Origin: Psammoneis japonica | Lineage: Eukaryota | DNA: 64,000 bases | Direction of reading: 5' to 3' | Assembly: GCA_008632985.1 (NCBI GenBank) | Contig: QPGO01000252.1 | Coordinates: forward strand, 1 to 64,000 | In this document: positions 2,492 through 41,725 of the stretch, piece by piece | How the letters are laid out: every line of letters begins with the position of its first letter | Numbering within the stretch: position 1 is the first letter of the stretch | The notes under the pieces: generated by a model | The model's database searches: none | What the model was told of the DNA's origin: nothing | Seen by the model: only the letters and a program-made list of their open reading frames with translations | Position numbers and translations under genes: made by a program

Positions 2492-4239
2492 CCATTCATT
2501 CCGCGTCTCACGTCTCACCCGCGGATATCCCAGTCGTGCATGATTCTGCGTCCGTTCATCTGTCCCATTAGACGCTTGCACAATTGTTGTTGTTGTTGTT
2601 GCTTTTCTTTTCTGTCATGAGTGGTGATAACATCTGTATTCAAGGCTCACTTCTGATGTACACTCCAAGTGAACAGAGTCAATTACAGCAGAAGAGGGCA
2701 ATGTTCACCACAAGTGCACATTTGCTCCAGCACCCTGGGTGCTGGTCAGAAGGAAGAAGTTTGCCCGACTCTCTCTCTCATGGCCGGCCATTTTGACACA
2801 TTGAGCCCCACACAGGTCCACGCACCCAGTCTTTGTTAGAAACTTCCCACTCAAACATTTACAAAGTCATCAACAGCAGAGATTTGTGACAATGGCCTGC
2901 TTCGTGCAGCATTCTTTGAGTGCACCGCCTTCTGGACACACAGCTGTGCAACAGCCCTGCGTGCTTGCTGCCAGCCGACTTTTTGTTGTGGGTTGCTGAG
3001 ATGAGAATTGCAAAAGTTTTTCAAAAGCTGGCATGAAACAAATGGATGCTCAACACTTTGCCTTGTCAACCCCACTTGGAGTTGCTTTTCCTCACAAGTG
3101 CTGCAGCAAGGCTCTGCACTTCAGGTCTTGGTTGTGCACTCAGTGTCAATGCTGCCTGCTGCTTCAATGGGTTCAGCTGCTCACAAGCTCAGTAAAACAG
3201 TGTGGCAAAAACAATGGGATCAAAGATGCTCACCCTGTCATCAATCAAAGCCCATCCCATCCATCTGACCTGCTGGACAGAGCGGCCAGCTTTTGGCTTG
3301 CTTGTGCTGAAAACAAGTTCACATGCCATCTGGTTGCCATGCAGGCCCTGACAATGTGCAGCTGGTCTGCATGGGAGAGCAGCTTTCACCTCCTGCTCAA
3401 TGATGAAGCTACTCAACTCTGCTCCCTTGGGCTTGCCTCCCACTCTTGCTCCAAAAGTGCTTGATGAGCTGACTGCAGATCATCTCCTTTTGCACTGGCT
3501 TTCTGATCAATCTCTTGGCATCTTCTGATGCATTTGCACTGTTGCAGCAAAATCATGCAGTTCACCCATGGCAGTGTCCAGATGCAAAACTAACTTGAAA
3601 TGTGGAGAGTTGAGGGAAGTGCCACCTTGAAACACCCGCTCCTTGTTGTGGTGTGGGTGGTGTGCACTGGTTCATGCAAAATTGAGACACACAGACAAAA
3701 TGATGAGCTCCCTCTGACACAATTGCCACAACACAATGACAAGAAGGTGCAAAGATGAGGGCAAAAAAGGACCAAACGCAACAGAATTGTCTTCATGCAG
3801 TGATGCTCAGAGTGTTTGGCATGCACAATGTGAAGGAGGGGATAAGAGCAAGAACCCGTGTCAATGCTGACGTCAATGCAGATGCAAGAAGCTAGAGTGT
3901 GAGGCGCGTTAGATGGCCAAGATTGGTTTCTCATTGTTTCTTGAGCAGTGGGAGGATCTGCATAAATTCCACATGACCTGCCTTTCTCATTTGCAAAAAC
4001 ACACCAAACAGGACACACACACATTTCCCATTTTTCACAGTGCATTTCAAAAGATGATCATTGCACCAATGATGAATCATCGCAGCAAGGTCATGAAATT
4101 TTTCAAAGAGCATTGCCATGGCATGAGAGGACATTGCAAAGAACAAGAGAAAGTGAAACAAGGGCAGTGAGAACAAGCTCGGACAAATCATGAGGCAGGT
4201 GCATCATGCAAAACCACTTCTCCCACTCTTCATGCTCCT

Positions 4240-6112
4240 TGCAGAGATGAGAAGAATCAACACAAGGAGGAAGAAAAGTTCATGCACGACCAAGTCATTC
4301 TGCCATCCTTGCCGACAGGTCGTTTTGCACTGGACGACAACATCGCTGATGCATCTGACTTAGAAATTTCATCCTCCAACAAGAGCAACACACTGGATTC
4401 CTTGATTGAACACAGAATTGACATGGAAAATGCAGCACCTTTGAGTTCCACTGCTGGCACCTTTTCAGTCAGACCCAGGGGAGTGGTGATTCTGAGAGCA
4501 GGAAGAGATCTGGACAGCGTGACTTCAATGCCCACAGAATCAGAGACAATTCTTCTGGCCCCATCTGCCTCCCCCCGGCGGCAACATGCGTGACAGCACA
4601 ACCTTGCTTGTTGAAGCTCATTTGGCAGAATTGACAGAGAATGTGGGTGAGGCACAGGCACAAATGTTGTGGCTTGAGAAAGAGAACATGCAGTTTCAGA
4701 ATGTGTTGCCTCTCACAGAGGCAGAAGTGGCCCAACTGGACAAGGATGCAGTGGATCATGACACTGAAGAAGCAAGACATGGAGCAGCGGCCTTCATTGG
4801 GGATGTCTGGGAAAGCACAGTTGCAGATTCATTGTTGCTGTGGTGCCAGTGGCATTGACAATCACTGTGGCTTCAACAGCAATTGTGTTTGGAATTGCCA
4901 GAGGAGATGCCACATCCACAACACCAACCAAGGTTCTGTTGCAGCTGGTTGGCCAAGTCTTGCATGGAAATGCTGCAAATGATCACTTTGGCAGATCCAT
5001 CTCCTTGTCTTGCAACAGAAGGGCCTTGGCAGTGGAAGCATTTGGTTTTGCATCCATCTTTCATTTCAATCAAGCCATCAACACCTGGGCTCACATTGGC
5101 AAAGACTTGGTTGGGACAACAGAAGACGATGGATTTAGCTTTTTGATTTTCTGTTTGTGTCAATGATGATGGCTCAATTCCAGCTGTTGGGGCACCACGG
5201 AATGACACCCTGGGGAGCAGTGCAGGCCAAGTGCAAGTGTTTGAATGCAGCAACTCCACAAAAAGTTGGGTTCAACTTGGGTGCAACATCGTTGGAGAAG
5301 CATCTTTTGAATTGTTTGGATTTTCCGTGTCACTGTCAGAAGTGGGAGACATTTTTGCTGTGGGAGCACTTCTTGGTGACATGGAAAATGGCAAAGATTC
5401 TGGATCAGTTCACTTGCTTCAACGCAATGGCAACACAACCTTGTGGGAACCCCTTGGGCAGCAATTGTTTGGTGATGCTGCTGAGGACGCATTTGGCTGT
5501 TCCGTGTCCCCGAGTTGACAGGGGACAATTGCTGGCATCTGGGCAGATCTAAATGATGCAAAATGAGAAAAGATTCAGGCCAAGTGATTGCACATGAATG
5601 CAACTCTTTGTTGTCAAGGTGGGACTTGTTGGGTGATCAAATCAATGGGCAAGTGGAATTTGGTGAATTTGGGACATCTGTCTGTCTTGATGAGCTTGGT
5701 CATGGCAGTCAGTGCAGCAAAGGCAAGCCCAAGAGTCTTAGTGTGTGAGCATGACCACGCAACATCAAGTTGGGCACAGTGTGGACAAACTCTCTTGTCA
5801 GAGCAGAGTTGGAGTCATTTTGGTGAATCTGTGTCCTTGAGCTCCAAAGGAAATGTCTTGGTCATTGGAAGCAGTGGGCATGACCTCAAGGGAAGAGCAA
5901 AAGCAGGTCAAGTCACAATCTTTCAATGCAACAGCAGTTCATTGAAATGGACTCAACTTGGAGAACCATTCAATGGCAAGGCTGAGCCACATTGGTTTGG
6001 TTCGTCAGTGTCCTTGTCAGCTGATGGAAGCATCATTGGAGCAGGTGTGACTCAAGTCTTTGGCAATGAGGGCAAAGGTTCCGTGTGCACATTCTTTGCA
6101 CATTCTGTCTAA
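4240..6112 (+). pseudogene. Decayed host-type membrane protein gene with FG-GAP/integrin-alpha-like beta-propeller repeats
   Basis: Repeats spread over several frames: VGQVLHGNAANDHFGRSISLS, LFGFSVSLSEVGDIFAVGA, HFGESVSLSSKGNVLVIGSSG, WFGSSVSLSADGSIIGAG. A TM-like segment (VPVALTITVASTAIVFGIA) lies upstream. Multiple frameshifts; Tyr expected in these repeats reads Cys or His (VFECSN, AHECNS, VCEHDH, IFQCNS). 5' boundary approximate. Confidence 0.8.
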
Positions 6113-6777
6113 ACTCACAAAGTTATGATGCTTTTGCCTTGGGGCTAAAATGTCAAATGGCATGGCTTCAATTCTTCATCTTGTGAACATGTGATTGTTG
6201 CCTTCATCTTCAAAATTTGCTGCAGCACTTGTTGTCCCATGGGCATTGTAGCTTGCCTCATTCTTTCCTGAACTTAGCAGCAACAACAACAGCATCAGCA
6301 GACCATCATGAGATGGTCAACCAATTTCACATTTGACCATGCACAGCACATTGAAGATGAGTCACAGAGCAGCCTCTGATTCTCTCATGGCATCACCACA
6401 ACCTGACTGACATGAGTTGTAAAATGAGTGACTTGAAAGGAACATGTAAAATCACAAAGTGTTGATGTTTTTGCCTTGGCTAAAATGTCAAATGACATGG
6501 CTTAAAATGCAAAATTCCTCTCAGTCTCACAGTGTGAACATGTGATTGTTGCTGTCATCTTCAAATTTTGCTGCCACACTTGCCATCCCATGGGTGTTGT
6601 GGCTCACCTCATTCTTTCCTGTTCCAGCAGCAGCAACAACAGTGTCAGCCAATTTCACACTTGGCAGCTGGCACAGCACATTCTTGAATGTGAGTCACAG
6701 AACAGTCTAAATTTCCCTGATGGCATGACCACAATCTGTCCAAAATGAGTTGTGAAATGTGAGTTGCTTGAAAGGAA
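6111..6777. repeat. Diverged tandem duplication, ~337 bp unit x2
   Basis: 6111-6447 aligns with 6448-6777 (shared gccttgg..ctaaaatgtcaaatg, gtgaacatgtgattgttgc, cctcattctttcctg, cttgaaaggaa). Differences include gggCAttgTAgctTG vs gggTGttgTGgctCA. Confidence 0.85.
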
Positions 6778-9374
6778 GACGAGGCCAACAGGGGAAAAGA
6801 TGCCACAGAGTCATGAAAGATGCAAAAAAGCTTTGGTTGACAGGTGCCATTGTCAGTCCCTTCCCAGTGTGCAACAACACCCATGAATGTGACATTGTTC
6901 AGGCATGTGAGTCAACAAACAAATGCAGCATTTGTGCTTTCTGCATCTGTTGCCAAGAGTTTTGCCCTTCTTGCAAGAGTTCCACCCATGGCAACATCAT
7001 TCTGCCTTTGCTTGGCAAGTCTGCACAAAGTTGAGGTGCATCTGGGAAGTGTTGTCAAGCCATTTTGGCACAGCTGTGCCAACAAGGTGCTTTCAAATTG
7101 CACATGCTGTCTCACTCTCTTGACAATCATGGTGGCCAAATGAAGAACATTTGTAGACCAAGTGTTGTTCGGCCATGCTTTCGGTGCCATTTTGATGTCA
7201 GCCAAGCTGTTCACATGAGAGCCAATGGCCAGGGAAGGAGGTGGCAGGGTGGTGGGTGGGTGTGATGGATCGATGGGGTGGGGTGAGGCAGCAGGCAGCA
7301 CAAAAAGGATGTTGTGAAACACAAATGATGGGAAGCAGGTGAGCATTGGCTGAAGCTGTGGCATGCCCTGGGGAGGCCACTTTTTGAGTTTGGCACATTT
7401 TGGTGTGTGGTGGTTCTTCATTGGAAGGGGGGGGGGATGAAAGTGAAAATGACCCATTGCAAAGGAGACACAGCAAGACACCCACAGTCAACACAGTTTT
7501 TGTTGTCAGAGAAAATGAAATTGTTGGCATTCTTCAAGGGCAGAATCAAGGAGGTTGGTGCAAATTGTGAATTTTGTGAGAGGGAACAAGTTTGAGTGAT
7601 GTGAGTTGTGCACGTCAAAGGTGGCATCAAATTGCAATGGCCCACATGTGCTGAAAGCAACACAAGCAATGAAGTGCTGGCCAAATGAAAGGAGATGTCT
7701 GAAAAAGAGAAAGAGAGAGAAGAGAGGAGGAAGGAGATGGGCACTGAAGAGGTTGTTGAGTTGAGAAAGCAAAGGAAGAAAACCAGGGAAAAGGGGGAGT
7801 GAGAAATGTGCTGCATCAGCCACACATCCTGTGGCTGCTCTGATTTTGCTTTGGCCATCTGAAAATTGAACAACAGAAGCAAATTGCAAAATCATGTTTG
7901 CAGAGAATGGCTGTCACAATCCCGTGGCATTTGGAAGAGTGTCAGCACAGTGCCCAAGCAAGGCAGCAAACAATGTGAGACAAGCAACAGTGCTGGTTCA
8001 CAGTTGAGGCAATGAAAAAAAGGCTGAAAACAGAAAATCAGAAAAGAAGGAAGACAAAAGGCATGAAACAGGGTTTTGACTTGAAAAATCTTGTGGCTCC
8101 CATGATTGGAAAGGATGATTGACGCACACCCGGAGACATCAAAAATTGTTTGATGATGCAACCATGTGGAGTTGAGGATGGAGCAAAGAAATGTGCAGTG
8201 TGCTGTGATGGCATCAAAGTGAAGCAAAAGATGGAAAAGGGAATGCCCAGCAGTTGGCACATTTGACTTTGTTGACTCTGGCTGGTGAAGAAGATGTGGA
8301 CAGTAGCCACAAAAAAGGAAGCTGAGAAAGAAGAAGGGGGTGGCAGAAGAAAAAATGCAAAAGGAGAAATGTTTGCTTTGACAAAAGGAAAAATTGGTGG
8401 GAGAAAATGGCCAATGTTGTTGAAGCTGACAGATTTTGGAAGTGACATTTCAGTGGGCTTTGGTGGTGTTTGATCCAAAGGTTCTTGGTGGCAACAGTGT
8501 GGGGTTGTTGCAACACTTGAAAGCTCTTTCTTGCACAAGCTTTGCCAGCACAGAAAGCTGCTGCAGAAGAAAGAAAAGATGCTGATGCCAGCTAGAAACA
8601 CAAAAAAACAAGGCCAACAGGAAGGAGCAACAAGAAACAATCTGAGAAAAAACAACAAAAAGTTGTTTGTGGCCATCATGGGACAAAAATGGCAGAGGCA
8701 ACAATGAAAAGAAGAGAGAAAAGAGACGGCTTGTTCTGTGAGAATGTGCTGAAGTTTGGGGTGTGTCATGTGCACACTGCATGGACAAGAATGTTGATGC
8801 AAGAGAGACAAGGGCAAAGAGATGGCAATGGCAAGTGACAAAGCCATGTGCTTGTTTGTCCTTGAGAGAGCTGCTGGTGGTGCACCACATGGAACTTCAA
8901 GTGACTGCAAATGAAGAGCAGCCCAAGGGCCAAAAACAGGCAAAAAACCAAGAGAGGCAAGTGCCAGCACCTGTCCACACATGAATCCAAAAAGACACAG
9001 AAAATCACGGAAAGATGAGTGTGCATCAAGAGGCTCAAAAATTTGCCAGGCGGCAATCAAGCATGGCAAAAGAGATGGCACATGAAGTTGCTTTTGACAA
9101 GACATTTGCAGAGCAGAAGAGGAGGAGTGCAAGTGTGCCACAAAGCTTGACAAAAACAAAAAAGACAAAGCATGACTCCAGTGGCAGCACTGACAAGGGC
9201 AGAGATTGAGGTGCTTGCATCAGATGAGGAAAATGAAAATGGCAGCCAGTTGGAAGGCAACAGTGTCAGCACACAAAAACAACACAACAAAGTGAAAGTG
9301 AAGGTTGGGATTGGTCTGACACCAGTGGCACACAGTTGAGACATTCCACTGGCACAAAAGTGCACAATGTCACA

Positions 9375-9861
9375 TTGCTGCAACACTTGGATCAATGCAT
9401 TGTTGCTTGAAATCAAATGGGCTGCACATGAGCTCCAGCTCTGGGTGGAGCTGTGCAGTGGGGGGCTGCAACATTTCACATTTTTGATGCCTCACACACT
9501 GCGCAAAACCCACGCACACACTCTTGCATGACTTTGGACTCATTTTGTGTGCCAGCCAATGTTGCAGGCTGTTTGGCATCCACTGATTCTGACAAATTTG
9601 TCATTTGCACACAGATGCTGACTGTTTCAGGGAAAATCCTGAGCCATGGGAGCTGTTGCTTGGCAACACGCAGCTGTCAGAGGAGGTGCAAATGTGCCAA
9701 CTCAACACATGATGTGATGATGTCATTGCACATTGCACCCACCTGCATCCCATCGCAGCACTTGCAAAGGGGTGCATTGGAGCTCATTTGTGGTGGTGGA
9801 TTTTGGTGAGTTCTTGCCACACCACAATGGCTGCAGAAAACCTTGTGTTGACTTTCTGGGC
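9375..9861. repeat. Copy of a dispersed ~1 kb repeat family, interrupted by the Copia insertion (continues at 15525-15690)
   Basis: 9375-9577 aligns with 20527-20726. 9773-9861 joined to 15525-15690 aligns with 21240-21470. Confidence 0.75.
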
Positions 9862-10150
9862 TGTCAGAGAGCAAGAAGCTCATGGGGCTCTCAACACAAA
9901 TCACAAGACTCAAGTTGATTCTGCAAAAAGGAAAGAAATGATGATCAACTGACAAGTGTCATTTGACAAGTGCAATGATTCAAGTTTGGCAAGTGTCAAT
10001 TTGGGTGAGAATGAAAAGAGAGATGCAAGCAAAATTGGTGGTTTGTGATGCAGAAACAGCAAGAAAAGTGAGTGAAAAAAATTTCCAGATGTTTTCACAT
10101 GCTGTCTGCAGGTCACAGGCAGTGTCAGTCAGTTGTTGGATTGTCCAACA
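9862..10150 (+). repeat. 5' LTR
   Basis: tgtcagagagcaagaagct ... ttgtccaaca, colinear with 15223-15524. Confidence 0.9.
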
Positions 10151-13100
10151 TGACACATGTTGATGCTTTGGGGCAACAATCTACCTGAGATAGAGCAAGA
10201 AACCATGTCTGAAGAAGTGATGAAGGAATCCACTTTGCTGTGGAGCACAAGAGAGTGGATTTTGAGATTTTTGCAATGAAACTGGAGGCATTCAAGAGCA
10301 AGCAAGGCTGCAAGGAAGCAACAGTGATTGATGTTGGTGACAAGCTCATCAAGAAGACAGAGAAAAGGAAGACAAGAAAATCTGCAAGCTGAGCACAAAG
10401 TCCTGCAGCAAGATCATGAAGGCAATGCCAGACAGCTGGGTTCAGGTGGCTGAGAATGCTGGTGGAGAGCACCAGTCTGCTTTCAAGACAAAGGAATGGT
10501 TTTGAGGGAATGTCACTTGGAACAGGTCAAGACCAATGATTGTCAAGCTTTGAATGCAAGCATGAAAGATCTGGATCCAGGGAACTTCTAAGATGTCCTC
10601 ATGTTGCATCTTGGCAAGTTGGGAGACATCAATGTGAAGTGGGGAGCAATCAAGCCAGAGTGCAAGAACAACAAATTACAGCAGTTGAAGACTGAGATCC
10701 TGTTGAAGATCCCAAGGGATGATGACAACCAAAAGTCATTCAAAGGTGAGTTCTGGAAGGAGAAGGCCATGGAAGCCACTTTGTGTCAGGCAGCACTGTG
10801 ACAGAGAGTGAAAACAGTGTGGGCCTTTAGGAGGTTTCAAAGGTGCCAAGGAAGGCATGCACAAGATGCTTGTGAGATGCAGGCACCAGAGAGTGTGGCA
10901 AGATGGGTTGCAAAGCCAAGTTCTGCACCAACAAGAACAATGACAAGTTCAAGTCCAAGAAGTTCAGTGGTGATTGCAGTTTTTGTGGCAAGTGGGGGCA
11001 CAAGGAGAAGGATTGCTTCAAGAAGAAGAAGCAAAATGGTGACAAGAATGTGGAAGAATCAAACAAGGGAATCCTTGGAGCATTTGTGGAATCTGCAAGT
11101 GAGGTTGAGGAGTGGCAAGACAACACCCCTTCTTCCTTCTTTGATGACTGGTTTTCCAATTCTCAAGTTAGAACAATGATGGGCAGACACCCACTCCAGT
11201 GATGAGACCAACAAGTGTGCATGGCTTGTGCACTGTTGTGGCATGAGTGGAACAAAATGCCAGACAATGAGTCCAATGATGACACAAGTGTGCCAGGAGA
11301 AGTTGACATCACCACATTGTTGGTCAACATCATGAGTGATGAGGACAAAGATGACAGAGGTGGCACGCCAGAGCTGGAACCTTCAGACAGTCATCATGAT
11401 GCAGACTCTGATGATGGCAGTGACAGAGAGACTTTGCCAGAGCTGTCATGTCATGAAAAATCAAATGACAGTGATGATGAAGACAATCTTTCAGGTGTGT
11501 TTTCTCTTTCATGAGACATCAATGGAGACAATGACACAATCCCTGAAGTTGCTCCTCATGTGCTGAAGTTGTGGTGTGATGCAACTGCTTGTGATGGCAT
11601 TGATGATGACACACAGAGTTGTGACTTCAAGGGGTTGAGGCAGCAAAAAGTGTCAAGAGCAGTGGAGACAAGAAACAGCTTGATGCACTCTGTCATCTGT
11701 TCCAAGCAAAGACAATTGAAGCATTCCAGATTTGATGCCTGGATGCTGTGACAGTGATTTAGATGACAAGGATTCTGTTGTGGCTGACCTGATTCATTTG
11801 AATGGAGTGATGATGAACAAGTTGAGTGGCAATGCAGCAAAACTGTCGCTGGACTCTGGGTCCACAGCTCACACCAAGTGTTCATCAAAAGGCATGAGGA
11901 ACTTTCAAGAGGTGAGTGAGGTCATGAAGGATGCCCACAAGGGCACTTCTGTGGCTAGACTGCAGGGAGAGTTCTCTTTTATGAGGAAAGACTGGGGCAA
12001 GACAGTGGCGACAATGGAGGTTTATGTCCAACCAAACTTCTCCCACAACATTGTGAGTCTCACTGAGTTTTTTGAGAAGGGCTGTCACTTGAGTTCTAAG
12101 ATGGGCCCAAAGAAAGCAATTGGTTTGGTTTGACCAGGTGGCACCAAGTCACTTTTTGAAAAATCCACAAAAGATGGACCACACTGCATGGAAGTTGAAG
12201 AGGTGATGTGTTGTGATGGAGAAGTGGCCACACAGCTCTCCACAGACAAGAAAAAACCATCTGAGAACAATGTCCACGTGAATTGCATGCACTTTCTTCT
12301 TGTGCGTGAGCCACATGGGGAAGACCACAACAAAGAGAAAATGTCAGTGGGTTTTGGCTGGAAGTTGACCAGAATGCCTGCTGTGCACTAGTTTTCTGTG
12401 TGAAGGCAAAGGTTGCTGCAAAGAAAACAGTCAAGCCAAGTGCCAAAAAGGCAAAAAGGCCTGGACAACACTTGCATTTGGGTGCATCAGGCCTGCACAA
12501 GGCAACTTGGGGAGGAATTGCTGTCATGTGATGCTGGCTGATCAGTGCACTGACAGGCTTTGGTTGTTCTTCAAACCACCAAAGCAGGCCAATTTTGCCA
12601 AGGATGTCATTGAGTTGAAGGGGAAAGGTTTCACTGTTGAACACTTGGGCTTGGACAATGCACCCAAGTGGGTGGCATTGGAGCCAATTTGCGGTGAGTT
12701 GGGCATCATGATGGAGTGTGCTGCTGGACCACATGCACCACAGTTCAATGCAGCTGTCAAAAGAGCTTTTGCAGTGGTTCAAAACATGGCCTCTGCTGCC
12801 TTGAAAGGAGCCAGCATGACTGAGGCTGATCAAGCTTTACAGTGGGCAAATCCTGTTCAAGATTGCATGCATGTGTGCAACCTGGTCCCACAAGAAGACT
12901 GAGGCAATGCATGCAAACCTTTTTGGGGAAGAGTCTCCTGTTGAGCCAGAAGATTCAATTGCATTTGGGGGGACAAGGGCTGGATGATGAAGCAAAATGA
13001 GATCAAGGCCAAGTCCAAGACAAGGCTGAGGAAGTTTGATGTGCATGACATGCACCTCAGTGCTCAAGCAACACCTGTGTTGTGCTCAAGGCTTTGACAG

Positions 13101-15222
13101 ACCATTGTGCACATGGTTGTGACACTGGGAGTCCAAGAAATGTTGTGACAAGATTGACCTGGCCATTGAGAAAGGCAGAAGCTTGCCATCACTTGGGTGG
13201 ATGATGATGACATCATGGATGTGCTTGCTGATGATGCCAACAGACCCCATGTTGTTCCCAATGATGACAATGTGGGGTTGCTGATGACATTGACAATGGC
13301 AATTTTGGTCCTTGAGAGGATGTCAGCTGTGGTGCAGATGAGCAACAGCTGAGTCAGGATGATTGATGTGACTCAAAAACCATGTCAAGGTCAGAGCATA
13401 AATTGAATCATCTGCAGATGTCACACAATCCAGCCAATGTTCTAAAAAGTCAAAACAAGCCTGCGGAGACTGAAGATGACATGGAAGTTGAGGCAGCCAA
13501 CATGCAGTGCCAGGACATGCCGATCCAGTGAATGTGACAAGGAAGTGATGTTGTGCAATGAAAAGGATGAATGGCAGAAAGGACTTGTTGCAGAGTGTGA
13601 TGGCTTCTTTGAGTTGAAGACTTGGACTGCAAAGAAGTGGAAGGACCCAGAAGGTGCCAAAGCAAGCAAGCCTTTGACCATGAAGAATGTCTGCAAGAAG
13701 AAGTTGCATGCCAGTGCAAAGGAGCTGAGACGTCACATCAGGAGTTGCACTTGAGGATTTGATGTGATTCCACCAGGTGCACACTTTGACAAACAACACC
13801 TGCAGATCAAACCATGAGACTGGCATTGGCAATGTCATTGTGGATGTTGTCAGAAATTGGGGCACAAGAGATGTGTGTTTGAAGCAGAGAAAGCTTGGAC
13901 AGTGGGAGATTTGTTTGATGTTGTTCAAGCATTTCTGAACTCTGAGATGACAGGAGATCCAGTTTGTGTCAATCTTCCACCATTGCAGAAGGAGTGTTGC
14001 AAGCACAAGGGGATTGAATGTGATCTCACTGATTTGATGTTGCTTTGAAAGGCACAGCATGGGCAAGTGGATGCAGCCACATGGTGGATGGACATGTTTG
14101 TCAAGATTGTGACAGAGAAAAGTGGAGCAGAATCCAAGAGGAGCAAGCCTGACCCTTGTGCATTGTGTTGGCATGACAAAATTGGCAAGTTGAAAGTGCC
14201 AGCGCTGACATGTGTTGATGATGGCTTCATCTGTGGGAAGCCCAAAGTGGTCAAATGGATGAAGGACTGTCTCACAACCAGAGTGAAGATCCCAGATGTT
14301 GGAAGGATCAACACACACCTTGGAGTTGATTGTGAGCTCAAGAAGGATGAGCATGGGTGGCACTTTGAGCCTTCTGTGGAGAAGTGTGTGTCACTGAAAT
14401 GGCGGCAGAGTGTGAGTTGCACACCAGAAAGAAAGCCAAGGATTTCAAGACACCTGGTGTTCCAAGTGAGATTCTGATGAAAGTGGATGATGAGACCATG
14501 ATCCTGTCAATGAGAGTGGATGCCATGCTCATGTTGTTGGAAAGATCTCATGTGCTGTGTTGAAGGTGTTGCCCAAGTCTGTGAATGCCACAAGAGCACC
14601 AATCATGCATTTGTTAAATCCGACCAAACAGCATTGGAAAGTGCTGGACAGGAGACTGGTCAGATGCTTGAAGCACTGCCATCATCTGTTGAAGCCAAGG
14701 ATGCCATTGGAGTCAAGGTCAATTGGCATTTGAAATTCTGGTTGCTGGGGAGCTGACAAAAATGCCAGAAGAGCATGACAAGAATGTTGAATGCTCTGGG
14801 CGGCACAGCACTCACAAGTTGGCAGTCAAAGAAGCAAGCCCACCACTGCTGCACTCAGCAGTTGTGAGAGCAAGACAATGGCAGGGATGACATTTGCACA
14901 AGATGTGTCATTTCAAAATGACTTGTTGGAGGAGATTTTGGGTGCAGATTTGTGGAAGATGCCAAGCTGTGTTTGTGGCAACAATGCGGCCTCACTGTTT
15001 TTGGTGGTGAACAATCAAGTTGGTCAGTGGGCCAAGGAAATCCACATTCATGACCAATTTTTTGGGCAAGTTGGTGGAGCAAGGCAAAGCAGAGCCATGC
15101 CATGTCAGTGCAGAAAACAATCTGGCAGATGTCAAGAGAAAGAATTCCAAGATTGAGACACAGAAAAGATCAAAAGAGACTTTGCATGAAGGGTTTGTCA
15201 TGGTCAAGACAATCAAGGAGGA

Positions 15223-15524
15223 TGTCAGAGAGCAAGAAGCTTGTGGGACTTGAGTCATGATTGAGTCCTGACCAGTGCTCAAGTTGATTCTGCAAAAAGG
15301 AAAGAACTGATGATCAGCCAACAAGTGCTGTCATTTGACAAGTGCAACGATGATCGCAGTTTGACAAGTGTCAATTTGGGCAAGAATGAAAAGAGAGGTG
15401 CAAGCAAAGCTGGTTTGTGATGTGCAAGCAGTGTGAGAAAAGTAAGAAGAAAATTTTTCTGGATGTTTTTGCATGCTGTCTGCAAGTTGCAGGCAGCGTC
15501 AGCCAGTCATTGGGTTGTCCAACA
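15223..15524 (+). repeat. 3' LTR
   Basis: tgtcagagagcaagaagct ... ttgtccaaca, directly after the polypurine tract. Confidence 0.9.
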
Positions 15525-17865
15525 GTGGGCCACAACCTGGCTTTTGGGGGAGCCCTGCTTGTCCTGAGACAGCTTCTTTTGGACAGACAAGAGGTGGCAA
15601 GAAAGAAAAAGATTTTATTTGAAGAAGTGTGCAGGTGAAGAAAAAAAGGTTTTGCTCCTCTTCAAGTTTGCACATCATCCTGCCAAGAGATTTTGGATTG
15701 TGAGAGGCACAAAAGGGGAGGCCACCAAAGGCAGCCCTGAAGCACAAAATGTAAAGAAGAAAAGGCCAGGGAGAAAAGAAGAGAAAAGAGAGGGAGGAGA
15801 AAAGGAGAAAGAGTTGCCACATTGTCAATTTGTGATCATCAGGCTTTCCTGCAAAGAGTGTGTGGGAAATGCTTTGTGGCAATCTGGTTTGGTGTTGCAC
15901 CAGAGTTGAGCCACTGTGGCTTTTAGCCATGGGGTGGCGTTGGCATGGGAAAGGCCCAAAATCACATCTTTGGTGAACACTTGCACCAGCCAAGATCTCT
16001 TTGCCCTGGCATCTCCTTGGCAAAGCTGCACTCCATGAATTTTCCTGCCATGTTCTTTCAGCAGCCATTTGACATGTGACATGCAAATCTTGCTGCCAAG
16101 GCCTGCTTAAGATCCAGTGCCATGCATCAAGTTGGCATGTTGAAGGTTCCATGCATTGGAAACTTTTCTTGAGAAATCCTCGTGACTCAAGTCGCCACCA
16201 AACACGTTCTGCAATTCTGCTGCAATGCTCCAGAGCTGCATCATTTGCCAGTTAGATGGACTTTGTGACTCTAAAAGGCACACGTTTTGGAGTGCTGGTG
16301 AGCCCACCTTCCCCAACTTTTGACTCCAAACTTGCTGCTCACAACAAAAATCTCCTGCAGAAGCCAGGGAGGATGAGGAGCTGAGGAAACCATGAAGCCA
16401 GTGACAGGAGCAGTGGGGGTGCAACACTGGCACTGTGGGTGGCAGTGCTGGCTGCACTGGCATTGGCTGGGGCACTGTTTGCAGCTTCCTCAATGCTTTC
16501 AGTTGGCACCTGTTCCATTTGACAATGGAGAGGTCGTCAAGCTCCCCATGCCAATTCTCATGAGCAGTGGCCACTCATCAACCTTTGCCCATCTCTTGCA
16601 TTTGCCACAGTCTGCACACCACAACCCCCAAGCTCAAGGGAAAATGATTCCATGGTGCATTGACAGATTAGAGCGCTGAGCCCAGAGTGCTTCATGCAAG
16701 CACAGCTCAACAGTGCAGGGGTTGGCAATGTTCACTGCACTGTTGGTGCTTTCTGGGCTGTGGAGAATGGGCCATTTTGAGCTGGTGAAGACAAACTTGC
16801 AATTCAACCCCACTTGTTTCCAGACCTTCACAGTTTGAGTGACAACTCTGTCTTAAAGCAGATCACTGCCATCATCTGTCAGAACTTGCCAGATGAGAGC
16901 TGCCCCAAAGACTTGGAAAACTCATTCTCTGCAAAATCATCATCATGCAAAGAGAGCACATCAGAGCTGATGGACACCCATCAACAAATGGTTTGGATGT
17001 TTGCAGTTGCTCTGGTTGCTCAACAGGGACAACAATTGATGTGTGTGCAGACAAGTCATTCTTTGCAGGATGAGGGGGCTTCATGGAGCCAAGAGCTTGG
17101 CACATGTTGACGTGGGGACAAAGGAGCCAAGACTCAAGTGCTTGGAAGCCACATGACAAACACCATCAGCACATTGTTGGAAAAACTTTTTGTCATGTCT
17201 GCACCTGACTTTAAGCCTGGGAGAACATTGCACGTTGTGGTCTGAATGTGCGCAGCATTGTCAACTGTGTGCCACACAGCGGTCATTGCCAAGTTCTCAC
17301 CATCAAATCCTGTGGCAACTGAGCTTCAAGAAGCCACTTAAGAGGCAAGAATTTCTGATGCTTGCCATCCCAATGAGGCGCCAGAATGTGTTTTGAGTCC
17401 TTGGTCAGAAACAATTCAACAAGACCTCAACTCTGGAAACCAAGATTTGGCAGGCATCGCCAATGTGGCGAGCCAACAAACTGCCATGCTGCCATCTGTC
17501 AGCACCAAATTGAAAGAGCTTGTGCAACAAAGGCAACAATGTGAGGCATGCTGTGATGTGCAGCAGCAACAGACGTCGCATCTCCAACACAAGTTTGCGC
17601 CCATCAAAGGAGAACCAGCAGCACCAGCAGCATGAGCTCACGGCAAGCTTGAATGTCTCAAGACGCTGGAGGAGCCATCGCCAAGAAAGTGGCCCACATC
17701 AGATCTGCCACGCATGCAGCAGCAGGACAATTCTGCAGCAGAGGAAAGCAACAAAAGTGCTCCACTGGAAACAGCTGGCTCGCCTTGTCGCGGTGTCGAA
17801 GCACTCCGAACCAGCTCAGCTGAGAGAGACAATGACAACAACATGGAATTTCAGAACCGGAAAAA

Positions 17866-18385
17866 TTCTTTTCCTGGCCAGTGCATGAGATCTTTCATTT
17901 GAGTGCTTGAAAAGGGCGGGAAAATGAACACCGAATGTTTGCAGGTGGTGGTCTGAATTTCTGACAAATTCTCATCCTGGCCAGCGCATGAGATCTTTTA
18001 TTTGAGCGCGTGAAAAGGGCGGGAAAATGGAAAACATAATGTTTTAGGTTGAATTTATGATGAGTTCTTTTCCTGGCCAGCGCATGAGAGTCTTTCATCA
18101 TTTGAGCGTGTGGAAAGGGTGGGAAAATGGAACATTGAAGTTTTCGTGGCACGAACTTCAGGTCTGACGACTTCTTTTCCTGGCCAGCGCATGAGATCTT
18201 TCATTTGAGCGCGTAAAAGGGCGGGAAAGTGGAACATTGAAGTTACTAATGTCTGAATTTCTGATGAATTCTTTTCCTGGCCAGCGCATGAGATCTTTCA
18301 TTTGAGCGCGTGAAAAGGGCGGGAAAGTGGAACATTGGAATTTATAATGTTTGAATATCTGATTACGTGAAAAGGGCGGGAAAAT
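17866..18385. repeat. ~100 bp minisatellite, 5 units plus a partial one: ~65 bp conserved core and a variable linker
   Basis: Core ttcttttcctggccagcgcatgagatctttcatttgagcgcgtgaaaagggcgggaaaRtggaacat starts at 17866, 17969, 18065, 18172 and 18269, with a partial unit at ~18365. Confidence 0.92.
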
Positions 18386-19534: not shown

Positions 19535-20309
19535 CCCACAGCACACCGGTAGCCTTACAATGCTACCCATTACATAATCATTTCCATCTAATACATAATG
19601 TAATCTACTTTTAATGGCAGCATGCCATATCCAGCTAGCCACAGCAACACCGTGACTCTTCTTGTGGCCACGCCATAATCATGATTGCGGCGACCCTCAA
19701 CTGCCAGCTAGAGTTCGGCGCAGATCGGCCGGACCGACGCGGAGACCAACAGGAAATTGTCTGTGCCCCCCCTGCGCGAGTGGGGGGTCTGTTTCGCGTT
19801 GCTGTGCTTCGGAGACGTTCTGTACGCCGTGGAAGCAGTCCTCGGGGCTACGAGCACCCGAGGAGCCGCAGCAACCTCACTTTTTTCTTTCATCAACGTT
19901 GTGATGCACGTTGATGAGTTGAGAGTGAGTTTTCGCTTGCAGGCCACACCACACACCCTCAGTGGCTCTCTGGCAAGAGCTCTGATTCTGGGCTCCCGGA
20001 ATTGTGAGATCCTGCTTGAGGTCTGGTGCTCGTGGCTCACGCAACAACCAACCAGAGTTGCTCAGTCAGGAGCATCAGCCACCAGAGAACAGCATGGTCA
20101 GAGAACAACAGAGGGCAATCAACCAGTGATTGCCAGTGACCAGCACAGCTGGCTGCCCAGGCAAATTTCATGATTCCACACCTGCGATCCTCCTTGCCGG
20201 CTGCGCAGTTGTCAAGATTGCTCACAAGCTACACGCAAGATCAGCTCTCATTTTGAGCACACTCTGACCTTTCCATCAAGATTGCAAGGGCAACCCTGGT
20301 GCACACCAT

Positions 20310-21470
20310 GAAAAACCTGGTTTTCTGGGAAGCCAGGCTTGTTCAAGATTCTTCTCATGGGCACACAAGAGGTGGCAAAGAAAAAAGTTTTGATTGAAGT
20401 GTGCAAAGGAAGAAAGGGGGGAACATGACTTTTGCTTCTCTTCCAGTTTGAGTGTCATCCTGCTGCCAGGGACCATGCTTGTTTTCTCTGCAAATGAAAG
20501 CATTTGTTTGATGTCAGACAACCAGCTGCTGCAGCACTTGGGTTGGCGCATTGTTGCTCAATGTCAAATGCACTGCACATGACCTCCAGCTTTAGGTGGC
20601 ACTTTGCAGTGGGCAGGAGGTGACATTTTGCATTTTTGACACCTTGCAGTGCAAAACCCATGTGTGCACACTTCCACATGACTTTGGATCCATTTTGTGC
20701 TGGCCAGTGTTGCAGGCTGTTGGGCCAACCACTGAGTGACTTTTGTTTTGTTTTTGTGCAGTTGCATTCAGTGACAGCTGCAGAGTGCAGCCACACTCTC
20801 TGGCTCTCCAAAATTTTGAGGGTGAAGAGGTGTGGTGGTGGCGCAGAAGTGCTGTCATTTGATTTGACATCAAAGAGAAGTGGAGACTGTTTTGGTCATG
20901 AAGTGGTGTGCTGTGGTGCCTCAAAAGCAGTCATTTGTTTTGATGTCAAAGACAAGCACACTTCTGTTGCTGCCTGGCATGTGAGCTGTAGAGCTCCTGA
21001 ACAGAGGAGCTCTGTGGCCCTCACCCACACAGTCAGGACCCTCAGCAGACTGGCCATGCCCATTTCAGGTTGGGGTCATTCTTGGCTTTTGTTGCAGAAT
21101 GATGATGAGCTGCAAGGCTGCACATGCACTCCAGAATGAAAAAGCACTTCCAAACAAGCTGAAAAGAAAACAAAAAAAAACTGCAAGACTGCAAACCTGG
21201 CAGTTGAGAGAGCAACCTCGCCACTCCAGAAGGTTGCTCTGCATTGGAGCTCATTTGTGGCACCAGGTTTTGGTGGAGCTCTTGCCTCACTTGTGTTGAC
21301 TGTGTGGGCCACACAAAACCTGGCTTTTCTGCTCATCTTGAGACAGCTTCTTTTGGGTGCAGAGAAGAGGTGACAAAGAAAAAAATTTGACTGAAGTGGT
21401 GCAGAGGAAGAAAAAAAAGTTTTGTTTCTCCTTGAGCATGTGTGTTGTCCTTCTGCACAGGGACCATGCC
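20310..21470. repeat. ~1 kb repeat unit plus the start of a second tandem unit (same family as 9375-9861 and 15525-15690)
   Basis: The aaacctgg...agaggtgRcaaagaaaaaa...tgaagtg...agggaccatgc block occurs at ~20310-20470 and ~21315-21470; a related block is at ~15532-15690. Confidence 0.75.
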
Positions 21471-22501
21471 AACTTTCTCTGCACTTGTGAGCTTTTGTTT
21501 GATGCCCAACCAAAGGGCCCAAAAACGTGCTGTGTGACAAGCCATTTTGTGTCAACACTTTGGGCAGCCAGCCCACACACCCAGAATTTGCACCAGGGAG
21601 GGGGTGAAGGAAAAAACAAAATTGTAATTTTCATTGTTTGCCCCAACAAGTTTCCCCCCCTCATTTTCAAATGCCACGGTCTTTCGAAGCTTCAGCTTCT
21701 GTCGATTTTGCGGAATGGTTTTTCTTCATTTTTGGCTCAAGAAAATGTGACAAAACTCATTTTGAACAGCACTGGACATTTTTCATTAAAATCCATCATC
21801 AAGGTTTGCACCTTTCACACAATTCTTGGCAAGGCAATGGGTGACGTTGACTGAGTTTGCTTCATTCAAGATGATCAGAACTCTGATTTGAGTCATTCAC
21901 AACAACCCTCTCACCCCTCCCTTTTTTGTGGGACAGTTTGTTTCAAATTCAAATCCTGCCAAATGACTCAAACTGCAAAAACCAAAAAAGGCCTCTCAGG
22001 GGGGACTGTTTTGATGCACTGGAATTTGAGATTCATCCCTTGCAGATTTCACTGAGGCTGTTCCAAGATCATTCCAAAAGCATTTCAAGAACATTCTCAA
22101 ATGCACCAATTTGTGTGGAAAGCCAACTTTGGACAATTGGCCAATGGGACAGCCAGAACTGCCCAAGCATGGCACAACATTGCAAAAGTTAAATGGATTT
22201 GATCAACATGTTGCTGACAGGCACACCTGTCAAAACCAGTTTGTGTTTTCTCCAAAAAAAAAAAAAAGAGTGGCTCTTGGAAGCCTCAACACTTTTCAAA
22301 TGCAGCAGCTGTGGTTGAACTGTTGCGGGATGCAGTGCAACTGCTGGGCTGGGTTTGCACCAAATGTGCCTCTGCAACAATCACCAACAGCTCCAACATT
22401 GAAACACCATTCAATGAAACAGGCATTTTGTCATTCCCTCATTTGACCATTCTCGGAACATTCCAAAAACATTCCTGAACTGCAACCAAACTGCACCCAA
22501 A

Positions 22502-23116
22502 GTTGACTCTGTCATTCTGCCTGTCTTCCATGCATGACCATGTGAGCTCCAATTTCAACTTCCTCCATCAAAATCTCTGATCGACACTGCAGTCACAATT
22601 TTCAGTCAACAGCTTTTGCAACAACAAAACAGCTTTTGTGGTGTGCAACCTTGAGCTTTGCTCTTTTGATTTCTCTAGTTGTGCATTGGTGTGACAAAGC
22701 ACAATCTACATCTGCTGATCAGAAACCCACAAAACAGGACAACCGCAATGTGAGATGACATGCCCGATGCAAGACTTGATGCTGACTGGGTCTTCATGAC
22801 CACGAGGCCAGCAAAGTTGGCACCAACAAAGCAATCAATGCACTCATTGTTGAAAAGGGTGCAAACAGAGTCCCTTGTCCTCAGCACCCAGCAAATGTCA
22901 TGGAACATGCTTCATGGTTGAGATGGAGAGTCGACGTCTGCCTCATTCTGCCTGCCTTCCATGTGGGACTGGTGCGCGCACTCCAACCTCAGATTCCACC
23001 ATCAAAATTTCTGATTGATGCATTTTTTTCTTTTGCAACAACAGCAGCTTCTGCAGTTTACAACCTTGAGCTCTTGCTCTTTCATCATCTCTGGTTGTGC
23101 ATGGCGCAACAAGTCC
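22502..23116. repeat. Diverged direct repeat, two ~190 bp copies about 430 bp apart
   Basis: 22502-22700 vs 22931-23116 share tcattctgcctgYcttccatg, ccatcaaaatYtctgat, cttttgcaacaaca, caaccttgagct and gttgtgcat. Confidence 0.75.
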
Positions 23117-23824
23117 AAAAGGGAATCTTTGAAAAGGCCTGTCCTCACGAAACACAATGTTTCGCTGCACACTCCTGAGCAGATGAGAACCCCAACAGCT
23201 CTGCAGAAGATCAATCCACCTGCAGTGACAAAAGCTTCTGTGCACTGAAAGTGGTGGCAGTGGCACACAGCCAGCATCACATGATGGTGAGAACAAAAAA
23301 GACAAGCACAAGATGCCCACAGAAGCACGCACTTGCCGCGTCAATGCACCCACCACCCAAAGCTGCCTGCAGCACATCATAAAGCCCAGAAAGTCATCCA
23401 GAGGCCAATGCAGCAGGGTTGGAATGGATTTTGGAACAGCAGTGCTGTCGGTTCATTCGCATCGTGCTTTGCTCCGCAAGACGATGCACCAGAAGGCGAA
23501 CCGCGTGACCGTGTGGTGATGTTCGAAAAAGCGCGAAAAAACAAGGAAAAATGAAAATTTCGATTCTTCACCTTCCAGCGCGCGACGCGCAACTGAAAAA
23601 GTGGGAGCAAGTAATTTCCCTCCGACAATTTTAAATTTGGGCAGCCGTTCCCGATGTTCGCGCAATGACGTGTTATGGTTTCCTTCGCCTTTCGCCTTTC
23701 GCCGCTTCCACCAAAAAGAGCGGAATACGGTGCTTGTTGTACAACCACACTGTACAACGGCTCTGAACTTCCTCCTTACAGCAGCAGCAACAGGAAATCT
23801 GCAAATCCCGAACGCCTTTTACAA

Positions 23825-32507: not shown

Positions 32508-33979
32508 TTTGTTGTTGTGAAAGAACAAATTGAAATACAAGAGAATATGCTGACAAAAAAAACGATGTTGGTGGTACAAATAGAGTTCCACAATGTATCA
32601 AGACAGCAACCCTGCTGTGTTGATCATGGCAACAACAAAAAGATCATCAATCGGCGCCCATCAGATCGGGCGGATGACGCGTGGAGGCAGGCTGAATTCA
32701 CAAAAAATGCGTGAGCCGCAGAAAAAATGGCGGGAAAACGGACGCACGGAAGGACCGGGATTGCGCGCTTTGTCGACGGGGGCAATGACGCAATGGTTTT
32801 CTCTCATTGCATGAAGCACTGGCCCTCGCTCTGTGCACACTCTCTCAATTTGTCACCTGTGTCAGCGACATGGTTGCTGGAGGCAATCTTATGTCATGCA
32901 AACAACAAAAGGACTTAGCATCTCAAGGTTTGTGGGAGGAGCAATCATCTTGTTGGAGAGCATGTGCCTCTCCTGCTGCCTCTGTGTGAGAGTCAGCCAG
33001 GCACATTGCAACAACAGCACAAGCAAGCATGCCTCCCAGTGCAAGGGTGCAAGAAATCCATCCATGCACAAGGTGCCAGAACTGAAGCTGGTGCAATGAG
33101 CATTGTGGTTGTGGAAAAGTGAAAAAATCTGTCTGAAAATGTGGTGCAAACAACGCTGCGAGACCAGCAAGCTGGCGCAACACTCTTCACTGATTTTGCT
33201 GGCTGGGCATTGGGGATTGTCACTGTTGCACTGGCAGGTGCTGCCTTTGGGCAAGAGAGCAGAAGTGAAAATTCATTGCGCATTGTGCAAAGTGCTCTGA
33301 CACTGTCAACTGTCCCAACAAACAACAAGCAATGCGGCGCACAAATGATCTTTTGATTTCAAGATGGCATTTTCACAATGACGCCAGTCTCTTGAAAAAG
33401 AATTTTTTGACTTGATCTTCTGGGGGTGGTGGAGCCACACTGTCAGTCTGCTGCACCTGCTGGTTTTTTAGATGTGGTGTGCTTTTTGGTGCTTTCAGCT
33501 GTTGTTCTCTCATGTCAATTGTTGGGCTGCTCCAAGACAAAAAAAATGTGGAGCTTGCTGCCAGTTTGTGCACTTGTTGCTCCTGAGGATCAAGCAAGTG
33601 GTTTTTTTGCTCAACTCACAAATTGCTGGAACAGCTTTTGTTCTGAAAAAAGCTGCTGTGTGTTCTTTGACTCCAGGTGCTGCTGCCACAGTTGCTCACC
33701 TGTGCTGGTGGCTGGTGCACCAGCATTGGCATCATCTTGGTGCTGGGCCACGTGCAGGGATGTGCTTCAAACAAGCCCTCAGGCCCTCCAGACAGGATGA
33801 CCATGTTGGCAATGATGCTGCTGCCCAAACTGGTGCACACCTGATTCCCAGCCAGCTCATGGGCAACAGATTGACCCCATGACAACAAACCACAGTTCTG
33901 AAAGTGATGGTGCCTGGCACCTGCCAAAGATTGGTTGGTGGGCAGGTCACACTCTGACCTCTGGTGGCAGTGGCTCTGC

Positions 33980-34241
33980 CAGCATCAAATTTCAAGTCTC
34001 CTCCCTCAGACATGCAGGTGACAAGTGGCTGCATGGGCAACAAGAGATTGACCATGTGGTGCTGGCTGTTCACAACAGTTCTTGGGGTGATGCCTGACTG
34101 TCACCTGCCTTTGGCCTGTGCACTGTGTGACTGGTGGTGTGCCCCATTTTGACCTCTTTCACTCCAGGCAGCACAAAATTTCAAGTCTCCTCCCCCAGAG
34201 GACATGCAGGTGAGAATTGGCAGCAAAGACATTGACATGTG
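33980..34241. repeat. Diverged direct repeat, ~189 bp period
   Basis: cagcaNNaaatttcaagtctcctccc..gacatgcaggtga..attgac at 33980 and 34169. Confidence 0.7.
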
Positions 34242-37200: not shown

Positions 37201-38639
37201 TTTTCAAACAATCAGTCAAAACTGTCAACCACTGTCCTGCACACACAGCAACAACTGCAATCATGCCATGATTGCCACAGCACTTCACAATCATGACTGG
37301 CTGCAACTGCAACTCTGTGCCTCTGCAACAGCAGCAGTGCTGCTTGCTCCATGCACAGGGACACCCTGTGTGCAAGAATGTGCAAGATTGCTTTTGGCAT
37401 CCTTGCATGTGCACTTTCTAATGCTGCTTCAATTGTTGACCATGGCTGCCACATTTGTGTGCCACAACGGCAGGTCCAAACACATCCACACTTTTTGCAT
37501 TGCAGCCTTTCTTTGTGGCAGTGACTTTTAGAAACAAGAAGACAATGAAGCATGCAGTGCTTGGGCAATGGCGGGTTGTGCATGACTGTGCTTGAGATGT
37601 CCAAAAAGCACTTGCAAACAATGTCAAGAAAAAAGGTCACAGTGGAAATTCTGCTCTGATGTTGGTGCCATTTTGTGACACAATCTCACATTTCTTTCTT
37701 TTTGTCTTCTTTTTTGTTGACACTTTGGGCCACTTTCTATCATGATGAGATTGTCCATCAACCATTTTCACATGAATGCTTGCACACACACCCTCCTGAA
37801 GGTTGCCACATGGACTCTTCTGGCAGAATGAGTTGGACAGATGGTGTGTTGTTGCCATGCTGCTCCATTCCCTCTTGTTTGAAACCATGTGCACAAAAAA
37901 CTTTGTCACGGAGAATTCTGTGTGAAATGCACTGGAGAGCATTGGAGCAAATGATCTGCATGCAACCCTTTTGCATCATCCATCTCACTTCTGCCACAAG
38001 AGTTTCTGAGGAGACTTTGGGAGTGTGCAGCACATGCAACAATGGTCAATGCATGAACTCATGATGAAGAGTGACTTTGGTGCATTGACCCAAGACAGAA
38101 TGGCTGCAGCATCTCAGCAACGGTCACATTCTCTTCAGCAACGGTGGCAACCACATCCCCCAGTGGGCTGGCCACAACCCATTTCTGAGGACTGGTTGGG
38201 GGTCATTGACTCTCATTGCAAAATGATGACAAGGTTGCATGTGCATCAGGACATTGACAAAAAGTGCTTTTGAGCTGCTTCTAAACTCAACAAAAAAGAA
38301 GTCCAAAAGCTGTGAGACAGTTTTTGTGACAGTCTCAAACAACAAACTTGATGCTCCTTGGCACAACCAACTGACAGTCCCTGCACTGCTTGAGGAGGAG
38401 CAGAGCTTTGTGCATGCAAGCATTTTGTTTGTTGCTGTTTGTCAAGTCTTGCCAAGCTGTGCCAGTCAGTGCAGTTCAAACAATCAATGGAGACATGATT
38501 TGTTGATCAATTTGAAAAAAAAACATTGAGCCAGCTCCTGGACAAAGTTGAAAGCAGCCTGCTGGAACAAAAGAGTGGAAAAAGCTTGGGAAAAAAGCAG
38601 GCATGAGCAAATTGTTCTGCGACAATCCATGGCCTTGCA

Positions 38640-41417: not shown

Positions 41418-41725
41418 AATATATTGCTTGTTCTTCGTTTAGGGCCTAGAAGGTCACTGCTGCTCGTACTGTACACTGCACTTCTCTTTAGACTATGGGT
41501 GCTATCAGATTGGCCGTTTTTGGCAGATAATCATGGATGGAGCGACGAGGAGGAGAGTCGCCTCAAAAACATTGAAATACATAATAACGGCTACAATCAA
41601 TTCTTATATTTTCATATACGTTCATTTTTAAAAACAAATGAATAATCATTTTTTAAATGTAACAATTTGAACAACAGTCATAGTGTCGGTCGTCGCGGCT
41701 TTCAACGAATTCTTTTTCAACGGAA

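Follow-up and report, generated by a model that had tools for sequence, protein, structure and literature searches.

The DNA analysed here, hereafter the window, comprises 64,000 nucleotides (nt) of Psammoneis japonica (positions 1–64,000 of contig QPGO01000252.1, assembly GCA_008632985.1). Its feature of concern, at positions 9862–15524 on the forward strand, is by structure and homology a single, old and dead insertion of a Ty1/copia-type long terminal repeat (LTR) retrotransposon. Direct-repeat search, self-BLAST and alignment delimited two LTRs with TG…CA ends, LTR1 of 289 bp (9862–10150) and LTR2 of 302 bp (15223–15524). A probable 5-bp target-site duplication, TGGGC, was read directly on either side (9857–9861 and 15526–15530). 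Two direct repeats with such termini and a short target duplication are as found in copia elements, the right copy of the duplication being offset here by one base past the end of LTR2. Also read directly was the purine run AAGGAGGA (15215–15222), which adjoins LTR2, resembles a polypurine tract and would have functioned as one.

The internal region of ~5.1 kb (10151–15222) consists of degraded copia coding sequence interrupted by frameshifts and stop codons. In tblastn comparisons it is colinear with residues 257–1581 of the intact 1586-amino-acid polyprotein of a metagenome locus (L001), whose Pfam domains occur in the order zf-CCHC, Pol_BBD, SH3_retrovirus and RVT_2. Through this match the element's domain order reads as that of copia, i.e. 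gag knuckle, protease barrel, integrase, reverse transcriptase (RT) and C-terminal pol, its own fragments having decayed below the RVT_2 threshold. Pfam analysis of the 10 open reading frame (ORF) pieces of the element gave a weak Pol_BBD match only, and a word-indexed search with the integrase piece, covering longer proteins only, gave no match. The RT region (13536–14393) is 47% identical to L001 residues 1028–1312, and alignments place His or Cys at its conserved Tyr positions.

No second copy of the element's family was found by self-comparison within the window. The flanks of the element (9376–9586 and 15525–15683) match a further repeat copy at 20314–21504, so the element appears to be nested in older repeat DNA. 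A 7873-nt contig of a public sequencing run of the same sample (word depth 72) shows 0 differences to window positions 9700–15299, but possibly derives from the assembly's own data and would then not be independent; other contigs of that run share short stretches with the element, beyond which their sequence is rich in CG and TA, and two further runs gave no matching contig.

The two LTRs, aligned with MAFFT over 286 positions, differ by 52 substitutions (39 transitions and 13 transversions), and at 10 aligned dinucleotides one LTR has CA where the other has TG. These double swaps lie, in LTR1/LTR2 positions, at 9881/15242, 9897/15258, 9950/15319, 10006/15381, 10051/15423, 10060/15434, 10086/15460, 10096/15470, 10114/15488 and 10134/15508, those at 9897 and 10051 falling in less securely aligned stretches. 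When substitutions in the observed numbers (39 transitions, 13 transversions) were scattered at random over LTR1, the mean number of swaps was 1.18 (maximum 7) and 0 of 20,000 trials reached the observed 10; adjacent double transitions other than TG↔CA number 2 in total between the LTRs. The swaps are thus real and in excess over random placement. LTR1 contains 0 CG and 0 TA among its aligned dinucleotides, and LTR2 holds two intermediates, TA opposite TG at 10069/15443 and CG opposite TG at 10123/15497. A sequence-only reading made before this analysis had reported repeated TG↔CA double swaps and both intermediates: its seven listed swaps are all among the ten aligned here, both intermediates are present at 15443 and 15497, and the possibility it had named against itself, that swaps are no commoner than expected from random transitions, is contradicted by this null. 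It had also placed the change on DNA after integration, yielding both TG and CA, which agrees with both products being found and with the different resolution of two LTRs that belong to one insertion and are flanked by the probable TGGGC duplication.

The element lies within one of several blocks that are poor in both CG and TA. Composition maps at 1-kb and 200-bp bins divided the window into two kinds of DNA, the 1-kb bins having observed/expected ratios (o/e) either of 0.00–0.21 for CG and 0.00–0.13 for TA, or of 0.6–1.3 for CG and 0.2–1.0 for TA. On average, CG and TA stand at ~0.05 in the repeat blocks, where TG and CA reach ~1.9, and at ~1 and ~0.5, respectively, in gene-bearing DNA, G+C content being ~47% in both classes. 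The depleted blocks occupy approximately 1–1000, 3000–17800 (the block holding the nested element), 19900–23200, 32800–40000, 41800–47400 and 51400–58000; their borders are sharp at 100–200 bp resolution and are shared by CG and TA depletion within a few hundred bases. Altogether, 35,105 bp of depleted DNA contain 114 TA and 177 CG against 8055 TG+CA, in keeping with the near saturation claimed by the sequence-only reading, and the internal region of the element alone has 14 CG and 16 TA against 628 TG and 531 CA. Because non-coding DNA between genes is undepleted (TA o/e 0.2–1.0 in normal stretches), the depletion is not the general neutral equilibrium of the genome.

Repeat pairs elsewhere in the window were compared in the same manner. 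Four other pairs in depleted DNA showed 9, 6, 4 and 3 swaps (null expectation 1.57, 1.06, 0.87 and 0.37, respectively), and three further pairs in depleted DNA showed 1, 2 and 3, which is below significance. A 1.7-kb direct repeat in normal DNA (39766–41495 and 47218–48939; 90.6% identity, rising to 96.8% over a 1388-base core) has normal CG and TA, with 50 CG and 44 TA conserved in both copies, and shows 0 swaps across its 1.4-kb core.

Several lines of comparison indicate that TA was lost from the element by mutation and was not scarce in its ancestor. An RT fragment (14049–14474) searched with phmmer against 1.84 billion representatives had 85 relatives, the 10 best of which, when looked up, came from metagenome collections only; 77 of the 88 proteins retrieved, those with at least 2.5% Tyr, were used as tblastn queries. 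A 13-sequence alignment was too diverse for a locus search, and a 5-sequence alignment used instead retrieved four metagenome loci (L001–L004), all of intact type and none depleted (CG o/e ~1, TA 0.43–0.77). At the seven columns with Tyr in at least 60% of homologues the element has no Tyr (4 His, 2 Cys and 1 Phe), whereas it keeps 130 of 208 conserved non-Tyr residues (Fisher p = 0.0013). The conserved Arg residues that it keeps, six in number, are all encoded by AGR codons (R, purine), and the changed conserved Arg codons include TGG, CAT and TGC.

Codon alignment with L001 as a proxy for the ancestor (1073 codons) places 16 Cys, 8 His, 1 Tyr, 2 Phe and 4 other residues of the element opposite 31 Tyr codons; with L003 as a second proxy, 37 Tyr codons are matched by 17 Cys, 6 His and 0 Tyr. 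TA sites of L001 (n = 93) are now TG in 33.3%, CA in 20.4% and TA in 2.2% of cases, and its CG sites (n = 186) are TG in 25.3%, CA in 16.1% and CG in 0%, the remaining dinucleotides being conserved at 16–47%. About 50 TA-derived and 77 CG-derived TG/CA dinucleotides are visible against L001 in the interior of the element, so that roughly two fifths of the converted interior sites would be of TA origin.

The same polarity was seen in a pair of LRR gene paralogues, of which one copy (58269–58585), beyond the 58-kb domain border in normal DNA, keeps CG and TA and the other (57732–58057), on the opposite side of that border, is depleted. In the aligned stretch the normal copy has 16 CG and 11 TA, and the depleted copy 1 CG and 3 TA. 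Nine CG sites of the normal copy have become TG (6) or CA (3) in the depleted one, and nine TA sites have become CA (6) or TG (2) or stayed TA (1), giving 17 losses on the depleted side against 1 in the reverse direction (p = 0.00014). A similar pattern was found outside the window: at the same Tyr columns, His or Cys stands in four RT fragments of other metagenome contigs that lack Tyr altogether (P0001, P0031, P0034 and P0068) and in the Tyr-poor metagenome fragment P0008. These copia RT protein fragments point to the same decay signature in other environmental eukaryote contigs.

Residual TA dinucleotides in depleted DNA (n = 114, across all blocks) are far from random in their neighbours (Y, pyrimidine): 73 are YTAR, 40 mixed (RTAR or YTAY) and only one RTAY, against 120 YTAR, 417 mixed and 240 RTAY in normal DNA (p = 8e-21). 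Counted per strand, TAY falls 41-fold and TAR 5-fold from normal to depleted DNA, and CG in depleted DNA showed no context effect comparable to that of TA. The simplest reading that fits these counts would be a per-strand target T-A-pyrimidine in which A is changed to G, so that a site with TAY on both strands would be erased, one with TAY on a single strand mostly erased, and one with TAY on neither would linger. Since the Tyr codon is itself TAY, this rule predicts the observed preponderance of Cys over His at former Tyr codons. It also offers an alternative explanation for a sense-strand excess of TG over CA, which is suggested by 78 TG against 49 CA at ancestral TA and CG sites (p = 0.013).

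The swaps between the LTRs may have arisen by two routes. CG and TA are self-complementary, so a change on either strand would yield TG or CA; if each ancestral CG or TA became TG or CA at random in each LTR, half of the sites would be discordant, and opposite resolution of the same ancestral site would therefore appear as a TG↔CA double swap. By the second route, an ancestral TG would change to CG or TA by ordinary transition and be quickly resolved, half of the time to CA. A four-state Markov model (inputs: transition divergence of 12/146 outside pyrimidine–purine (YR) dinucleotides, 10 discordant, 49 concordant and 2 residual sites), fitted to this one LTR pair, gave fast rates at least ~40-fold above background transitions. 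Its equations, solved by hand, suggest ~15 ancestral CG+TA sites in the LTRs, with ~7 swaps derived from them and ~3 from the two-step route. The proposal of the sequence-only reading that ancestral TA or CG sites were resolved independently thus stands in substance, although some three of the ten swaps may have started as TG or CA under the model. Joint TA and CG ancestry is claimed here for the element as a whole and not for any single swap. The contrary outcome that the reading had considered, all sites having been CG, is opposed both by the coding part of the element, which lost TA as fully as CG, and by the polarised TA→TG/CA changes of the LRR pair. Counted over every site, the LTRs diverge by 18.2%, and outside YR dinucleotides by 11.6%, so LTR dating would be inflated ~1.6-fold; the overestimate foreseen by the sequence-only reading exists, but its 'greatly' was too strong.

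Decayed repeats in the depleted blocks, having lost TAA and TAG, can be read over long distances on either strand without meeting a stop, in frames of up to 393 amino acids with almost no Tyr (e.g. 8041–9219 and 13326–14390, both on the reverse strand). Such blocks contain 93 of the 137 window frames of at least 120 amino acids. A Pfam search of 83 of these 93 (the 10 in the element being excluded) yielded FG-GAP_2 twice and one sub-threshold match. The two FG-GAP_2 matches (E = 1e-9 and 1.5e-8) mark a gene relic at 5147–6777 inside a depleted block, which includes a 330-bp tandem duplication (6110–6442 and 6447–6777; 72% identity by BLAST) and shows the same decay at 5147–6109, with His or Cys where Tyr would be expected from the family consensus. 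Host-type multi-copy genes thus appear to be affected alongside transposons.

The gene-bearing DNA of the window includes a Rieske/PaO-like ORF, coatomer alpha, a Sey1/RHD3-like ORF and LRR ORFs. The Sey1-like ORF has 339 relatives at E ≤ 1e-20 (best match 61% identical), and among the best 120 of these 339 every organism-bearing name is that of a diatom ('Thalass', a name cut short, Cylindrotheca, Nitzschia, Pseudo-nitzschia, Cyclotella and Bacillariaceae); by protein homology, the window comes from a diatom without a close relative in the protein collection searched. A look-up in the Atlas agreed with this, whereas an Atlas query with coatomer alpha gave no informative taxon. A dinoflagellate origin, examined through the spliced-leader motif of that group (0 matches), was given up in view of the diatom homologues. 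The 1.7-kb repeat brackets a fully depleted 5.7-kb block (41.8–47.4 kb) in which no Pfam matches were found. It could be a segmental duplication, or its copies could be long LTRs belonging to a younger element that encloses older DNA. At one margin of a normal domain (17860–18363) there is a tandem array of ~100-bp units, 80–93% identical to one another. A single N at 49254 stands between two 165-bp repeats with 95% identity (49089–49253 and 49588–49758), where the TA content of the window is highest (TA o/e 1.0).

We consider it probable that a dead copia element in a repeat block has here undergone nearly complete conversion of CpG to TpG/CpA and of TpA to TpG/CpA as integrated DNA. The CpG part would be due to 5-methylcytosine (5mC) deamination in methylated repeats and the TpA part to a targeted hypermutation like that of the chlorarachniophyte alga Bigelowiella natans, possibly by enzymatic adenine deamination on DNA, both processes being directed to silenced repeat chromatin. 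For the CpG part, the observed depletion is accompanied by a matching gain of TpG and CpA, and the window resembles ordinary 5mC decay in its CG o/e of ~0.05, its TG+CA excess and its change of CGN Arg codons to TGG, TGC and CAT. Such decay does not explain the loss of TA. As far as the sources' available text goes, diatom methylation is predominantly at CpG (PMC5124317) and methylation of diatom transposons has been described (PMC9998398).

For the TpA part, the available text of a preprint on B. natans mutation-accumulation lines (bioRxiv 10.64898/2026.01.13.699255) reports two integrated viral regions in which 230 of 231 mutations were A→G or T→C, all 230 falling on TpA, at a rate ~1000-fold over background and in some lines only. 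The same text describes TpA-poor, TpG/CpA-rich clusters in that genome as enriched in RT and DDE domains, notes that ADAR usually prefers a U before the edited A, and proposes an ADAT2-like adenine deaminase acting on DNA (bioRxiv 10.64898/2026.01.13.699255). The window is like B. natans in that TpA becomes TpG or CpA depending on the strand and in that the change is confined to foreign or silent regions: 24 of 31 proxy Tyr codons are now Cys or His, TG or CA has replaced TA at 53.7% of the proxy TA sites, and the affected repeats form sharply delimited domains. In the tRNA substrates of TadA/ADAT enzymes U33 precedes the edited A34, which would make a T-A target natural.

The two cases also differ. 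B. natans is a chlorarachniophyte and the window comes from a diatom; rates were measured in the former and are derived from a model in the latter. In the preprint's available text, the B. natans region from a nucleocytoplasmic large DNA virus is only partly depleted (Rho TpA 0.45) whereas TA o/e is ~0.05 in the window, and TpA makes up 6.0% of dinucleotides outside the viral regions against ~3.4% in the window's normal DNA, which together with the diatom homologues sets the source of the window apart from B. natans. The window shows CpG loss in the same domains as well as the TAY/YTAR context, whereas the words 'CpG', 'flanking' and 'diatom' do not occur in the preprint's main text. No report of TpA-directed hypermutation beyond that 2026 preprint on one chlorarachniophyte strain, and none in diatoms, appeared in literature-search listings from outside subscription journals, and the available text of the diatom retrotransposon paper of Maumus (2009) does not mention RIP, dinucleotides, deamination or TpA. 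The locus is best filed as a saturated instance, from a lineage not previously represented, of a type of hypermutation that was described only very recently, here with a CpG component and a newly seen context.

A number of observations weigh against this interpretation. Change in B. natans is almost exclusively AT→GC, whereas the window loses CpG in the same domains, possibly by a separate, superimposed process; the two processes behind the joint depletion of CG and TA may have nothing to do with each other, or its cause may be of another kind, and 5mC in the depleted blocks is assumed. The borders of the two depletions do not coincide exactly, TA being gone and CG partly kept at 17.1–17.9, 22.3–23.5 and 51.5–52.4 kb, where the TA process extends ~0.5–1 kb beyond the CG process or runs faster. 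By our own tally, differences between TA and TG/CA that separate the two copies of the duplicate in normal DNA are without polarity across its 1.4-kb core. As for the context, the predicted product contexts are enriched (1.19 vs 1.01, p = 4e-5), although it is RCA, not TGY, that accounts for the enrichment; a site-by-site test with distant proxies went in the expected direction without significance (p = 0.16 and 0.08), and neighbour-specific transition rates against such proxies were swamped by ~20–25% background divergence in every context. Surviving YTAR could partly reflect context-dependent new TA and not slower loss. The fast rates, finally, come from a model of a single LTR pair.

Among other explanations, the one that survives best, though we regard it as unlikely, is loss of TpA by biased mismatch repair, in which a T:G glycosylase of MBD4/TDG type, recruited to methylated chromatin for the repair of deaminated 5mC, would turn replication-error T:G mispairs at TpA into C:G and so drain TA from CG-depleted domains. 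In E. coli, Very Short Patch repair depletes CTAG in an analogous manner. Such a process would account for the shared domains of CG and TA depletion and for the unchanged G+C; however, at a CpG o/e of 0.05 little methylated CpG is left for recruitment, the strong TAY/YTAR context is not predicted by it, and the B. natans process has no CpG component reported in the preprint's available text.

Improbable, and rather more so, is a system sensing duplicated DNA in the manner of fungal repeat-induced point mutation (RIP). The affected DNA consists of repeats, a retrotransposon and relics of multi-copy genes (FG-GAP, LRR), and the window shares with RIP irreversible, dinucleotide-specific transitions on repeat DNA, on both strands, that inactivate elements. 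A diatom methyltransferase, DNMT4, whose function is not known, may group with fungal RID in a clade that is possible and moderately supported in the source's available text (PMC9998398). RIP, however, consists of C→T changes mostly at CpA and creates TpA, which in the window is destroyed (o/e ~0.05), and G+C is unchanged here. Although the affected DNA is repetitive, the 1.7-kb direct duplicate, with its core identity of 96.8%, is undepleted and keeps normal CG and TA, which suggests that near-identical duplication does not by itself bring about depletion.

Two further explanations are very improbable, and equally so. Were ordinary CpG decay acting alone on an element that was TA-poor when active, CG→TG/CA would suffice to make the swaps, and one surviving LTR intermediate is indeed CG; but the other is TA, intact relatives have TA at 0.43–0.77, eight TA losses are polarised in the LRR pair, and the replacement of conserved Tyr codons by Cys or His contradicts this account for the coding part of the element. 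Editing of retrotransposon RNA or complementary DNA (cDNA) before integration, by ADAR- or APOBEC-like enzymes, would give deaminase-type transitions of the kind observed and could produce the possible sense-strand TG excess (78 vs 49, p = 0.013). These enzymes edit RNA or pre-integration cDNA, whereas the differences between the LTRs post-date integration, which contradicts such editing; moreover, non-retroelement DNA is affected too, and the preponderance of Cys over His is also expected from the TAY rule. Least credible of all is that sequencing or assembly went wrong at modified bases. CG and TA are dinucleotides at which base modification is typical, and the platform used for sequencing is unrecorded; against this, an identical contig of depth 72 occurs in the public run (possibly the same data), frameshifts and ordinary substitutions are present in the element as well, and relatives lacking Tyr come from separate metagenome data sets.

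Returning to TpA hypermutation combined with CpG decay, we tentatively suggest, as a possibility and with clearly less confidence than in the conversion itself, that it represents a chromatin-targeted defence of diatoms that edits adenine in DNA at a TAY target and, together with CpG decay, kills silenced elements irreversibly at unchanged G+C. Such a defence, converting every self-complementary YpR step to TG or CA, would correspond in function to fungal RIP; should it share a common origin with the Bigelowiella system, it would be of old standing in the SAR (stramenopiles, alveolates and Rhizaria) supergroup.

For genome annotation, decayed repeats that lose their TAA and TAG stops and Tyr codons acquire long spurious ORFs missed by Pfam, and the long frames in depleted blocks would be annotated as genes by ORF-based methods; LTR ages would likewise be inflated in such genomes if any YR dinucleotides were left unmasked. 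In a diatom, a footprint at saturation would demonstrate that TpA hypermutation is not peculiar to one alga and that it acts side by side with CpG decay, and the TAY context would be an extended target that any candidate enzyme must explain. The finding thereby raises the testable question of whether mutational genome defence exists in diatoms, major primary producers of the ocean with tractable genetics.

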